Shown: one piece after another, positions 46,376 through 51,900 of the stretch | Position numbering within the stretch: position 1 is the stretch's first letter | Layout of the letters: the number at the start of each line of letters is the position of its first letter | Assembly (NCBI RefSeq): GCF_004010195.1 | Contig: NC_057753.1 | Coordinates: 10,698,135-10,762,134, forward strand | Length of the DNA: 64,000 bases | Source: Chiloscyllium plagiosum | Taxonomy: Eukaryota | Direction of reading: 5' to 3' | Made by a program: the position numbers and the translations under genes | The notes under the pieces: generated by a model | Database searches by the model: none | Seen by the model: the letters and a program-made list of their open reading frames with translations, nothing else | What the model was told of the DNA's origin: nothing

Positions 46376-47185
46376 CTACAGGTTACAACAAATGCATCTT
46401 GACATCAGAGACCACAAGTATTTGAATAAGAGAATGCAGATAATTACAGGAAGAATAATAGTGCCAAAATGAGGAAAAAAAGCTCCGATATTTCCAAAGA
46501 AGTCCTTAAATGGCCACCATCCTGTGAGACTACCCATCTCCCCATAAGTCATATTTTCAAGTTTCTGAACTTCCAGGATAATGTGCCTTGAGAGATCAGT
46601 GATGTTGGAGGATTGGTCAGGAACGTAAGTACAGCATTCCTTTCCTACAATGGCACATGCCCCACCTTCTGTAGCCGATAGAAAGTCCAAGGCAAAATTA
46701 TTCTGAAGGGCTACTGTTCTGATTGTGACCATTTGTGCATTGATATTAGCCAGGGCATTTGCTGTATTATTGGTGACAATTTCCAGTATTATTCTTCATT
46801 TGCTTAATTCAGAGCCCTGAAAATGAAAGCATTATTGGAGGAGAGCCATTCCAATAAATGAGAAGAGAGCAGAGAGGTACCTCTTGGTCCTCAGGAGTGA
46901 AGGCAACCTGTCTAAGAGGAACAACATACTCTTTTACATCATCCCCACCAGTCTGGAGGGAGCCATGGATAGGCCTTGAGTCTACAAACAAAATGGATGC
47001 CATTATAGGCAGTTAAGCGAGAATATCCATCTTCCCATGCCCTGGAAATAGAGCCCTTCCAAAGGGATCCTTATGTTAAGGACTAAGGATCAATTAAATA
47101 GTAAAAAACCAAATTTAGTCAAATTTTGATTAGGTTCAATCGATGGGTTAGTGAGAGAGTATCGACTGGTCCCCATACTACTCCC
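46376..47185 (-). pseudogene. env: ERV env 3' half (SU end plus TM), disrupted
   Basis: FVCRLKAYPWLPPDWWG, furin site RTKR (46891-46880), hydrophobic fusion peptide, ISD-like LQNNFALDFL, CAIVGKECC (CX6CC) and a TM helix. In-frame stops are present. Confidence 0.9.
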
Positions 47186-47211
47186 CGGCGGGAATAACTA
47201 TGACTCTCTTA
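47186..47211 (+). rRNA. 26-nt 28S rRNA fragment (sequence upstream of the R2 target site)
   Basis: CGGCGGGAATAACTATGACTCTCTTA versus conserved 28S CGGCGGGAGTAACTATGACTCTCTTAAGG: 1 mismatch. Confidence 0.9.
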
Positions 47212-47337
47212 GACAAACTTAGTCTTAGTTGCCGACTATGACATTTTCACATATTTTTGGCGCATAGTTTGTGTCGTGCCTCCCCATTGGCCCTGCCAGT
47301 AAGCGCAGTCATCCTGGCTACTGGGTGACCAAACGAC
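47187..47337 (+). ncRNA. HDV-like self-cleaving ribozyme at the R2 5' end (probably mutated)
   Basis: Hand fold: P1 GGCGGG(47187-92)/CCTGCC(47292-97); P2 GTCGT(47273-77)/ACGAC(47333-37); P3 GCC(47278-80)/GGC(47289-91) with loop TCCCCATT; P4 GTCATCC(47308-14)/GGGTGAC(47323-29); catalytic-position C47330 followed by AA. Confidence 0.8.
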
Positions 47338-50300
47338 CAGAAAAAGTATGAGATGGCCGTGGTCCACGCAGACCTGATCTCAAATAAATTATGAGTCTTC
47401 CATTATCTATGAAGCAGTCCGGCTGGGAAGCGTCCTGGAAAAACAACCTCCCCGCAGCCTCGTCCGCAACTGCGAGCTGTGATAAGTCATTAAGTTGTGC
47501 ATGTTTAAAACCCGCAACAAGGTTCAAACCGAGACAAGGACCTTGAGACGATATCTCCTACCTTACATGGAGCTGAGACCGGACACCCCTCTCAGGGAGC
47601 CGGCTTGCCTAGTAACAGATGACCCAGATAACGTTGAAGAAGGTACCGTAAGTGCGGCCCACCCTACAGATGAGACAAGCATAACCAGCCAAACCTTCTA
47701 CAACAGAAGTTATAAAGACTCAATACACGGCACAGACTACAAAACGACTATAAACAAAACCAGTAAGGAAACAACCGAGACAACTGCCTTCATGGAAGGA
47801 GTTGTTATCGAGCCAGTATATGACAGAACATCTGTCCTGGAGGTAATTATCCACTACCCCGTCGATGGGCTGTTCCCCACGGTGAGCCTGTTCAAGATTC
47901 ATTTGACTAAAGTGCACAGAGTAAAGAATGTTCGAACAAAATGTTCACGCTGCGACAAAGCAGGAGAATACCATGCAATCGCCTGCCACTATCCAAAATA
48001 CAAAGGCAAAAAACAACCCCCAACAGGGGACTTTGCGTGCAGCGCGTGTGACCAACGGTTTTCTACTCAGTCGGGCCTTGGTCAACACGAGAGGCACAGA
48101 CACCCGATTCTAGGGAACGAGAAACGCCTCAAACCTGCACCCAAAGTCAAGGGCAAACCTGGGAGAAGTGATCGCGTATGGTCACAGGAGGAGGTGGCAC
48201 TCCTGAGGGAACTAGAAGTGAGATTTGCAGGATGCAAGTTTATAAATAAATCCATCGCCAGCATCCGTAAAACAAAAACCCCGAAATAAATCTCAGATAA
48301 ACGCAGACTCCTGGCAAACACCCCGACGGAGGTCCCGCCCCTAAACGAGTCCATAGACTTGCCTGAATCAGAGGCAGAGAGTATCCAGGAAAATTCCAAC
48401 GATCTCAACCTGCGCCAAAGAGCCAGCTGAAGAACACCGGCTTCGATCCCTAAACATAGGGACATAGATGACCAGCTTACACAGGCTGAGGAGCTCTTGA
48501 GCGCGAGGAATGACCCGGATCCCCTTGCCCTCGGGATTGGACTAGTGGAAAGTATTACTCACCTGCTAATGAATAGTAGGAAAGGACAGAGCAAACGCAA
48601 GAGGCCTCAACAAGATCGGGCCAAAAGAGACAGAAAGACAGGTAGCAATACCGGAGCCAAAATACGGTGGGCAGCATGTAGAGCGCTGTCTAGAGCGACA
48701 CAGCAGCTCTACAAAACTAACTGGCGCCAACTAGCTCGTGAGATCATGGGGGCACCGACCTCATCCACTTGTCCTCTCTCAAAAGAGGAATTGGAGACTT
48801 GTTTCCATGCGAAACTGTCAGCACCAAACCAAAAATTAAACATAAATGTGTATGCCTCATACACTGGTAAAGTTGATGACAGGTCCTTGATGAAACCTAT
48901 AGAAGTGGAAGAGGTTGAAGCAGCCATCAAGCGGATAGATGAGTGCAGTGCCGCTGGACCAGACGGCCTGAAACTGCAGGACATAAGAACAATCCATGAA
49001 CAAGAGGAAACTCATCTACCCCACCTCTTCTCCCTATGGAGCACGATAGTCAAGCACGATACCTGATTCACTAAGAAAGAGTCGAACGGTCCTGATTCCT
49101 AAGTGCAAGGATAAGGACCGCCTGAAAAGCATTGACAACTGGCGACCAATAACTATTGGTCCAATGCTGCTGCGACTGTTCATGAAAATAATGGCAAAAT
49201 GCCTTAGTGAAACAGTCAAAATAAACCCCAGGCAAAAGGGGTTCCTTGCGTCCGGGAGTGGCTGCTATGAAAACATTGTCATCCTTGAAAAAATCATTAA
49301 GGGAGCAAAACATAATCGCAAGGACCTCGCAGTTGTCTTTGTCAATTTGGCGAAAGCGTTCGACTCAGTTGGGTACAAACTATTGATCAAATCCTTGCAA
49401 AGAGTGAACCTCCCCAAAGCCTTTAAGCCTCACCGTAGACCTCTACACTGGCAACACAACAGTGGTGGGAGGGAACAGAAACTTTACCACCCCAGTGAAC
49501 ATTGAGAGGGGCGTAAAACAAGGTGACCCGTTCTCGCCAATACTATTTAACATTGCTTTGGATCCGTTGGTATGCTCTCTGGAGAGGGCCAACTCAGGGG
49601 TCACCATGCCCCTGGACGGCAGAAGAGTCGACTTTGGCCTTCACGGATGACATTGCCCTTCTAAGCGACTCACACACCGGAATGGCAAGGAATCTGAAGC
49701 TGCTCCAGACATACTGTGACCATACAGGCTTCAGTATTAACATAGCGAAGACGAAGGGATTCCACTTTACATTTAAAAGGAAGACCTTCTTATACAACCA
49801 CTTCACAAACTGGAAGCTGCAGGATGAATCCATAGCCTACATACCCCCAGGTGACACAACGAAGTACCTGTGTCACCCGTGGGCAGGTGTGGCAGAAAGG
49901 GAGTGGGAAGAGAAGCTTAAGTCCTGGGTTAAAGGAGTACAGGCAGCACCACTCCGACCACGACAACGGCTGGAAATCCTGAAAACACGTCATCCCCAGA
50001 CTGTATTTCCATCTCATCCTATCAGAGGCATCTCAGGCAACCCTCACTAAACTGGACCAAATAATCTGTAACACCACCAAAGAATTCCTACACCTACCAC
50101 CTCCTACCGCTGACGGAGTCCTGTATACCAGCAACAGGAATGGCAGTCTAGGTGTCCCAAAACTGGAAGTGCAGATTCCATCCGTCATTGTCCGCAAATG
50201 CGAGGCACTTGAGATGTCCAGTGATGTGGTCATTCGGGCCTCCTTTCAGTATAAAGGAGAGAGCAACACAGAGACCGTTGCGGGACTGTGAGAGCCCAAG

Positions 50301-51431
50301 GTCCTTTAAAAAAACTGAAAATTTCCAACCCAGTGGCAAGGAGGAAATGGACCCAATGACCATCATCAAAGACATCATGTCAGCACTCCAGGCGGCAGAC
50401 GCTGGGCGACAGAAACAGCCCAACAGGTATGCAGGTTGGAGGGAATGGGAATTCGAAAAGTGGCAAAATCTGGAATGTCAAAGGGCAGACATCCAGTACT
50501 TTAGAGATGACAAGATCTCTAACTCGTGGACAAAAGCAGCAATACAACAAAAATCCTCTAGGTTCATAAACACCTTGCTCTTGCGGTGAATCTATACGCA
50601 ACGAGTTACACTATCTAGAGGAAGGCCAAACCAAAATAAACTTTGCCGAAGGTGGGAGACGGCAATCGAGACCATCTCACACATCTCAGGATGCTGTCCA
50701 TTTGTAAAAAATGCTCGCATAAAACACCATAACAAGATCGCTGACCAGTTGCAAAAACATGTCAGTAAGTACGACTGGACATTGTACGTGGAGCTCAGAT
50801 TGGTCACAAAAGATGGCTCTCTATGGAAACCCGATCTCATATTTAAAAAAGAGCAGAAGATCGCAGTAGTAGATGTCACAGTGCGGTACAAGAATGACAG
50901 TAAAGCATTGGAAACAGCATGGCGGGAAAAAAGTGACAAATATAAACCCCTAAATGCCGAGGTCATGGAATTGACGGGGGGCACGGACCCCAAATACTTT
51001 GGCTTCGTGATGGGTCCATGAGGCAAGTGGCTGGGCCTGAATAACTGCCTCATGAAATTCCTCGGCATCGAGAAATTTGAGACATTCGCCCAAAAGACAT
51101 CAAGACTCACTTTGTCACTGACACTCGAATTATTACAACTCCTCAGTGACAAGTGAGCAAATAACCGCAGACTGTGATACACAATCTTTCACCGAGACAA
51201 GGATCGGCTAACCCCCACCAAAAAAATGATTAAAAAATTAAAAAAATGGGGGGGGCGCCGATCCACCAACACCAACATCATTAGGTCGTAGACCCTACTA
51301 ATTGACAAAAAACACCCGAGCCTCATATAACACCAGTACCACCTGGCCCTTGATCTGTGGTGATGCTGGAGAGTACAAAACATCGAGCGATGTAAAGACT
51401 CGGTAAAGGCACTCCTCTGAGTGTTTCAAAA

Positions 51432-51900
51432 TAAGCCTCTGGAGAAATTCCCATCTTTACTAAAGAAAATAGTATTATAAAGGACTACTAGGAAAGGGGG
51501 TATATGGGATCTGTTGTAGCCAGATTGGTACCAATCCCTGCATCGGGTCATTTTATGCCCTGCTGACTGCCATTCTTGTACTCCTTTCATTTTATCAGAA
51601 TCACCAGAAGAGTCCTGGAGTATTAGCCATTCTGCCACCTTGGGCCAGCTAGAGGAGACTGGCCACAGCGGGATACTCCCTGGGAATGGGGGCGGTACAT
51701 GAGCACATACCCAACAACCAATTACTTTTCCCATCGTTTGGGGCTCCTTTGATAAGCCAAATACAAAAAGGCATGATGATGTATAGATTGTCTTGGGCAC
51801 CCCCCCCAGGGAAAAATTAGTGTTAGCATGAAAGCCTTTGGCCCCCAAAATAAATCTCCTCAAAGTCACTGGTATCTAACGCATTTTTTCTTAGTCCTTG
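51432..51900 (-). pseudogene. env: ERV env 5' half (SU)
   Basis: Contains GCWVCAHVP (CXXC of gamma-type SU) and IPLWPV. Confidence 0.8.

Follow-up and report, generated by a model that had tools for sequence, protein, structure and literature searches.

The 64-kb stretch of DNA analysed here (the window) very probably carries, at positions 47187-47337, the fossil 5' self-cleaving ribozyme of a vertebrate, A-clade-like R2 element. The ribozyme class and its cleavage site at 28S position -28 are already published (Eickbush 2013); the window copy adds another lineage to this well-described class, and its value lies in the family-wide fossil record around it. As far as the portions of PMC3774820 consulted here describe it, R2 RNAs are cut from the rRNA co-transcript by an HDV-like ribozyme, the commonest cleavage site is -28, determined in vitro at single-nucleotide resolution in several insects, and in the ribozymes that cleave there the 28S sequence supplies the 5' strand of P1.

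The putative ribozyme opens a frameshifted R2 element of 4.25 kb (47187-51433). The remains of its single ORF occupy 47486-51021 on the forward strand in at least seven frames or pieces and comprise zinc fingers and a Myb-like N-terminus, a reverse transcriptase and a C-terminal endonuclease, with domain matches to C2H2 and RVT_1. Fragments from the N-terminal, central RT-adjacent and C-terminal endonuclease portions match solved R2 proteins (9nl2, 9.3e-32; R2Tg 9dou, 8.8e-29), the match to R2Bm being weaker (8gh6, 1.4e-9). On these sequence matches the element is classed as a dead R2 of vertebrate type. It ends in ...GAGTGTTTCAAAATA (51419-51433, forward strand), where all 30 aligned sister 3' ends also stop, and the final TA could derive from the target or from a tail of 28S. 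Canonical insertion (...TTAAGG|TAGCC...) is represented in the family: its 3' end is joined to TAGCCAAATGCC at 12 places with at most 3 mismatches, against 0 in a reversed control. LSU rRNA matches are found at several sister 3' junctions (L063-L066, E 9e-26 to 7e-40; L061, E 6e-12). Among the seven loci fetched (L061-L067), the 28S 3' tails extend for 14, about 23, about 59 (L061) and, in four copies, at least 160 nt before unrelated DNA begins. These tails of differing length resemble either variable co-transcript 3' ends or fragments of rDNA that have decayed.

The first bases of the element are derived from 28S rRNA. The Rfam LSU_rRNA_eukarya consensus around the R2 site (...GGCGGGAGUAACUAUGACUCUCUUAAGG|UAGCCAAAUGCC...) served as the 28S reference, and direct reading of GGCGGGAATAACTATGACTCTCTTA (47187-47211) against it gives identity to 28S positions -28 to -4 at 24 of 25 bases, the sole mismatch being A47194, where 28S has G. 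After 47211 the window has GAC and 28S has AGG, and identity is gone about 3 nt short of the R2 site. The leader accordingly spans 47187-47212 on the forward strand, or 28S -28 to about -3, and its first base forms the 5' terminus of the predicted cleavage product. The consensus stretch GGCGGGAG...UUAAGG measures 28 nt, and G47187 is therefore 28S position -28, as the preliminary description of this DNA had counted it. The junction reads ...ccccatactactcccc|GGCGGGAATAACTATGACTCTCTTAGAC...; the base 5' of G47187 is C, the same as 28S -29, and the next base upstream is mismatched. The boundary is therefore given as lying at or within 1 nt of the predicted cut, as originally claimed.

Upstream of the leader lies a filler of 9 nt, CTACTCCCC (47178-47186, forward strand), which by comparison with empty paralogues belongs neither to the surrounding host repeat nor to 28S. 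The 5' part of this interspersed repeat (46937-47177) has 36 matches in its own genome and the 3' part (51434-51683) has 41; the repeat as a whole has at least 36 genome copies at 68-83% identity. The two parts are contiguous in five empty paralogues (L068-L072), which read through ...CCCCATATATAAGCC... or a near variant and carry neither the element nor the 28S leader. Since the paralogues are uninterrupted, R2 entered the host repeat, together with the 9-nt filler, at a place where no 28S had been before, and the insertion cost the repeat 2-4 target bases. The 5' junction is bridged by a contig from another study of the same organism (X2 record 24, 2 differences), and both junctions are bridged in two other organisms by contigs some 94-97% identical (X14 records 9 and 16; X19 records 17 and 23). 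The insertion is real and older than the split from those two organisms. An X2 contig that joins 46988 to 51510 was considered as an insertion-free allele and set aside; its breakpoints lie off the element ends, and we read it as a paralogous empty host repeat. Contigs of X10 and X19, two runs taken as possible RNA, show loose ends of sequencing adaptor or bridges of genomic appearance.

Dispersed over many contigs of the 3.56-Gb genome are at least 38 copies of the 5' end (40 places were listed with a query from subfamily B) and, for the 3' end, 75 candidates, at least 42 of them scored as copies. Our sample comprised 30 5' ends and 30 3' ends, with 15 pairs from the same element, and hence 45 distinct elements. 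Every copy seen is old, the closest pair being 94% identical over about 265 nt. In most copies of form A (n = 15), 28S reaches from -28 to at least -5 and is succeeded by extra leader sequence before AGTTGCCGACTATGACG; L019 has a shorter 28S stretch, and some A copies are 5'-truncated. In form B and the intermediates (n = 15), GGCGGGAGTAACTATGAC is followed directly by element sequence. Two 3' ends on contigs C28 and C1 (L059 and L060) have flanks identical over at least 45 nt and are either a segmental duplication or one region assembled twice.

The 5' boundary seen in the window recurs throughout the family. G-28 is the 5' end in 16 of the 30 copies, each with unrelated flanks; 14 of these starts are clear (L001, L004, L005, L006, L010, L011, L013, L018, L019, L022, L023, L024, L027 and L029) and two are probable (L008 and L015), and some of the copies concerned carry CpG transitions. 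Another three ends lie at -27, four lie at -26/-25 or are unclear, and six join deeper in the leader, mostly through microhomology. In a single copy, L028, upstream 28S continues past the boundary for at least 165 nt (LSU_rRNA_eukarya, E 1.8e-19). No 28S beyond -28 was found in the remaining 29 of the 30 copies, and position -29 agrees with 28S in only one of the 16 that start at G-28.

The shape of this boundary bears on the origin of the leader, which could in principle have moved as DNA, on an R2-bearing rDNA fragment, or have come from a 28S-like target, with the HDV-like pairing a coincidence. Decayed 28S does flank some copies at both ends (L028/L063 and L064-L066), and the pairing set taken alone occurs at chance level, as described below. 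Moved fragments, however, would break randomly, whereas more than half of the sampled copies end their 28S identity at the same base amid unrelated flanks and only one goes past it. The host-repeat paralogues, moreover, have neither element nor leader, and the 3' side of the window copy holds at most TA of 28S. The sharp shared boundary largely refutes a DNA-level origin, which we regard as extremely improbable. The pair L028 and L063 is one subfamily-B element on the chromosome-sized contig C13, with decayed 28S over at least 165 nt upstream and at least 160 nt downstream, and represents either an uncleaved co-transcript copied back or a relic rDNA unit.

Several copies carry more than one leader. 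In L002, L006 and L009 the full 28S leader is followed by a second, slightly different one (GGCGGGAGTAACTCTGAC...), and L019 starts at the second: its 5' end is the GGCGGG that the other three carry internally, and here, too, the end and a P1 strand fall together. Leaders that are stacked, or duplicated in part, occur in L002, L003, L005, L006, L007, L009, L012 and L018. Leaders seem to have been captured and internalised repeatedly in R2 copies, and an old leader may survive as the A-type word GCCGACTATGAC.

An HDV-like set of P1, P2, P3, P1.1 and P4 pairings is possible within 47187-47337, all on the forward strand. The helix order (P1, J1/2, P2, P3, L3, P3', P1', P1.1, P4, J4/2, P2') matches a nested double pseudoknot, and the window copy forms 25 of the 30 pairs in the family register, with P1, P2 and P3 complete. 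P1 consists of 6 bp counted from the 5' G at the cleavage site: its 5' strand, GGCGGG (47187-47192), lies in the 28S-derived leader and pairs at all six positions, once as G.U, with CCTGCC (47292-47297), in which T47294 replaces the C of the family by a CpG-type change; the partner in the family is CCCGCC or CCCGCT. The J1/2 hairpin (47236-47267, with 47236-47243 facing 47261-47267) retains 6 of 7 pairs. P2 joins GTCG (47273-47276) to CGAC (47334-47337), where the ribozyme ends; all four pairs are contiguous, and the following two positions are mismatched in both subfamilies. P3 (47278-47291; GCC at 47278-47280, GGC at 47289-47291) forms its three pairs around L3, TCCCCATT (47281-47288). P1.1 retains one of two pairs: its 3' strand, facing 47282-47283, reads AG (47298-47299), and A47298 is mispaired, the base being G in 25 of 29 sister copies. 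The P4 stem-loop (47304-47325) forms five of eight pairs in the family register, 47304-47311 with 47318-47325 around a loop at 47312-47317, and is followed by J4/2, TGACCAAA (47326-47333).

This anatomy bears out most of what the preliminary description had proposed, namely a complete P1-P4 nested double pseudoknot, a 28S-derived P1 5' strand, the start, the end and the P1.1 coordinates, and the reading of the P1.1 GG as AG; its P4 is replaced by the conserved stem in the family register. It had also paired a word of the leader with element-encoded sequence. The partner, AGTCTTAGTT (47221-47230, forward strand), and the single mismatch of this candidate helix stand, and the leader word, AACTATGACT, is relocated from 47197-47206 to 47196-47205 on the same strand. 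In a 7-bp register the leader helix is 89.5% paired in the 15 A-type copies and shows no covariation; a rival hairpin is equally well kept (90% paired, no covariation).

The pairing set alone is not above chance. A loose descriptor, as the single copy satisfies it, gave 9 matches on both strands of the window, against 7.8 +/- 2.9 in 100 first-order Markov simulations, 43 of which reached at least 9. When the core letters of the family were added (GCC, L3 starting TCC, GGC), one match was left, the ribozyme at 47187, with 0 in the 100 simulations. Rfam returned no family at gathering score in the whole window and no relevant one at E <= 10 in 46900-47700; a MEG3_2 match in the window (E 6.8) is attributed to chance. 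At 14 sister loci no HDV-like Rfam family was found at E <= 10, the only real match being LSU rRNA beside L028. The search with HDV-like models that the preliminary description had suggested thus proved negative for the curated Rfam families of this kind, in the window and at the sister loci alike. Long J1/2 segments and pseudoknots are poorly detected by Rfam-type models. Beside the R2 copy of L013, a long near-perfect inverted repeat (2032-2140 of that locus) gives microRNA-like Rfam matches at E 0.06-0.14, below gathering, and is probably a mere palindrome.

Conservation of the fold was scored on an alignment of 30 copies (A1) over six helices, or 844 cells. The proportion of paired cells is 89.5%, against 28-46% with the 3' partners slid, and none of 500 shuffles scores as high as the real alignment in pairing or in covariation; both controls are lenient, shuffle control (a) being known as such, since the sequences are related and the structure itself comes from them. 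Paired cells amount to 84.4% in P1, 91.5% in P2, 95.5% in P3 and 91.2% in P1.1, and variation among these fossil copies is mostly neutral decay. Covariation among related R2 copies had been named beforehand as a check on the fold, and compensatory changes are found in P4 and in the J1/2 hairpin. P4 exists in three stem versions, each self-complementary, with compensatory changes at four pairs. Pair 164-178 is GC in 22 copies and AU in 3, pair 165-177 is UG in 12, CG in 10 and UA in 7, and pair 167-175 is GC in 18 and UA in 2; pair 161-181 is CG in 11 and UA in 10, with 8 mispaired copies, mostly of the intermediate group. Pair 94-121 of the J1/2 hairpin reads AU (25 copies) or GC (3 copies), and one copy carries P2 as GTGG/CCAC. 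P1 is unable to covary because 28S is fixed. Its first pair is G-C in nine copies (A) and G.U in eight (B). The UA cells at P1 pair 18-151 (n = 3), which look compensatory, were discarded as evidence, since each of the two changes is a CpG transition and the copies are dead. RNAalifold, a program blind to pseudoknots, predicts P3 and P4 unaided; it also proposes rival nested pairs (155-186 and 156-185), in which the conserved cytosine and one G of P1.1 would be occupied.

Letters of the predicted active site are conserved. The P1 partner and GG come immediately after the family core, GCC-UCCYCGYU-GGC. Columns of A1 conserved in at least 90% of copies, numbered on the first row, include C143 (47329) and A145-A147 (A47331-47333), with 144 (47330) absent from the set. 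The preliminary description had taken C47330 for the key J4/2 cytosine; its column (187) holds A, G or T in the older subfamily, B, and the assignment is abandoned in favour of C47329, which by its conservation is likely the catalytic base.

An RNA end at -28 might instead be made by a host nuclease or be a transcription start, with the fold serving end protection or translation. Such an end would be compatible with the shortness of P2, with the report that the ribozyme fold improves template use even without cleavage (PMC11331408, in part), and with the fact that we infer catalysis here, like the identity of the catalytic cytosine and the co-transcription by Pol I, from sequence. It is at odds with the position of the boundary, which is the first base of P1, and with the alternative start of L019, which is the second GGCGGG. 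The conservation, in at least 90% of copies, of active-site letters that include the J4/2 cytosine and the A's after it also argues against it, as does cleavage at -28 in vitro by homologous R2 ribozymes (PMC3774820; PMC11331408), among which a bird R2 ribozyme predicted at -28 is described as cleaving (PMC11331408). We consider a nuclease or a transcription start improbable as the source of the end, and self-cleavage remains our preferred reading.

The window copy itself has decayed. Over its well-aligned part it differs from the majority (at least 60%) at 10 positions, 7 of them CpG-type, including C>T at 47294, which turns a P1 pair into G.U, and G>A at 47298, which removes a P1.1 pair; the CpG decay suspected at P1.1 is thereby supported. 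The initial suggestion that the copy may be inactive can be put more strongly: with 25 of 30 pairs left, damage that is mostly CpG-type and a broken ORF, we regard it as dead. A ribozyme still working on a present-day transcript of the locus would accord with the pairs that are kept and with complete P1, P2 and P3. It is nevertheless very improbable, given the loss of one of two P1.1 pairs and three of eight P4 pairs, the changed L3, an ORF in at least seven pieces and the age of the insertion; with no upstream 28S, a cut would free only the 9-nt filler and the repeat.

The sites of stray insertion resemble the 28S target. Non-28S insertions of R2Bm at look-alike sites were reportedly described by Xiong in 1988. 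We defined as stray the 22 copies from L001-L030 whose 5' flanks lie in neither the hot-spot element described below nor 28S. Ten of these 22 have RAGTA, the sequence of 28S -23 to -19, at a distance of 9-45 nt upstream from the 5' junction, against a mean of 1.44 and a maximum of 4 per 22 in 25 control windows, which suggests an upstream recognition motif equal to 28S -23 to -19. In the host repeat of the window, GAGTA (47157-47161, forward strand) is placed -23 to -19 from the presumed nick, a 28S-like register, and in the same presumed register the nick site reads TAAGCC against TAGCC in 28S. For R2Bm, PMC10499050, in the portion available to us, describes a dependence on the TTAAGG|T site together with an upstream motif, and a rare copy outside 28S that occupies a mimic.

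A hot spot in another retroelement accounts for 7 of the 30 5' flanks (L004, L007, L018, L021, L023, L026 and L029) and 8 of the 30 3' flanks (L032, L033, L038, L043, L046, L048, L052 and L056), and thus for 12 distinct elements of the 45 sampled. The site is GGGAGTA-N19-|TAGACCAGTGAGCC, with GGGAGTA about 26 nt upstream and TAGACC at the nick, and encodes ...GSRDNPGNY|RPVSLTS... at the start of the RT domain of that retroelement (RVT_1, E 4.1e-14). Both subfamilies occur at the hot spot and junction details differ, and the insertions are therefore independent; several of the 5' junctions were formed through the shared word TAACTAT. Read jointly, the stray copies may map the RNA end at G-28, the variable 28S 3' tails and the off-target rules (a nick at TA(A)G(A)CC with RAGTA some 23 nt upstream), and may record an rDNA specialist that repeatedly parasitised a second repeated target. 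We hold this combined picture to be an even bet.

The following course of events would link these observations. Living copies would reside in the 28S gene and be transcribed within the rRNA precursor. Their RNA would fold as an HDV-like nested double pseudoknot, in which 28S -28 to -23 (GGCGGG) makes up the first strand of P1, and the P3/L3 active-site core is followed immediately on its 3' side by the partner strand, CCCGCC or CCCGCU. The J4/2 cytosine (C47329) would catalyse the cut 5' of G-28, so that the released RNA would begin with 28 nt of rRNA. After target-primed reverse transcription into rDNA this leader would be invisible, because it anneals to the identical target. In the case of the window copy, the R2 protein would have cut a look-alike site in the interspersed repeat, and the leader would have been copied beside foreign DNA, which would have frozen the RNA 5' end in the genome. 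Frameshifts and CpG transitions in P1 (to G.U) and P1.1 (to a mispair) followed as the copy decayed.

R2 proteins and -28 ribozymes are now engineered for RNA-templated gene insertion at rDNA. Such engineering needs the in vivo start and end of the RNA and the non-rDNA sites that the protein accepts, and the dozens of independent stray insertions supply such data for a vertebrate-type R2. They show a sharp end at -28, leaders that stack without available homology, 5' junctions with TAACTAT microhomology, and target mimics with GAGTA at about -23 and a TAGCC-like nick.

The HDV genomic ribozyme is a nested double pseudoknot in which GCC, an 8-nt L3 starting UCC, and GGC are followed by the P1 strand and GG. 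The R2 family has the same core layout, and the first P1 pair is G.U in the older R2 subfamily. Unlike in HDV, the P1 strand comes from host rRNA, and J1/2, which has a few nt in HDV, is 80 nt long in the window copy. Convergence of the R2 and HDV ribozymes is stated in the accessible part of PMC3774820. The core CCUCCUCGUGG is given as common to Drosophila (R2Dm) and zebra-finch R2 in the passages of PMC5035012 at hand, and the family core resembles it.

Known -28 R2 ribozymes include those of earwig, Nasonia giraulti, silkmoths and Tribolium A, and of the bird ZoAl R2 (Eickbush 2013, Palm 2024). The family described here shares with them a P1 5' strand equal to 28S -28 to -23, a P1 partner directly after P3/L3, the P1.1 GG, A's after a J4/2 cytosine, a J1/2 that is long and structured, a variable P4, and a released RNA that would keep a 28-nt rRNA leader. 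It differs from them in its own J1/2, which has one or two hairpins of repeated AACTATG/CATAGTT words, and in the four contiguous pairs of P2; R2 ribozymes are reported to have a P2 of at least 5 bp, with mismatches among the first five in a third of them (PMC3774820, in part). It differs further in being known here from old, dead and mostly non-rDNA copies.

With respect to target choice, the family resembles R2Bm, for which the RUM/RASIN analysis (PMC10499050, in part) describes ectopic targets that mimic 28S recognition motifs. RAGTA overlaps -18 to -23, where the N-ZnF helix of R2Bm is placed, rather than the RUM of that element at -34 to -22 (same source). Unlike R2Bm, the family has left dozens of stray copies in one genome and has one recurrent site in the RT gene of another retroelement.

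The reasoning from junction to cleavage site has a precedent as well. DNA junction duplications of leader length are held to reflect the R2 cleavage site in PMC3774820, as far as seen, and the logic of the preliminary description, which read the -28 cut from the end of the 28S match, is a variant of this published one. A full-text literature search, which is not proof of absence, found no paper that reads the cleavage site from non-rDNA R2 copies. Like the published tandem 28S duplications of 13-28 nt at R2 5' junctions (PMC3774820, in part), the stray copies keep the leader of the cleaved RNA in DNA, stacked leaders included. Unlike those duplications, the insertions lie outside rDNA, where the leader abuts foreign DNA and its boundary is directly visible.
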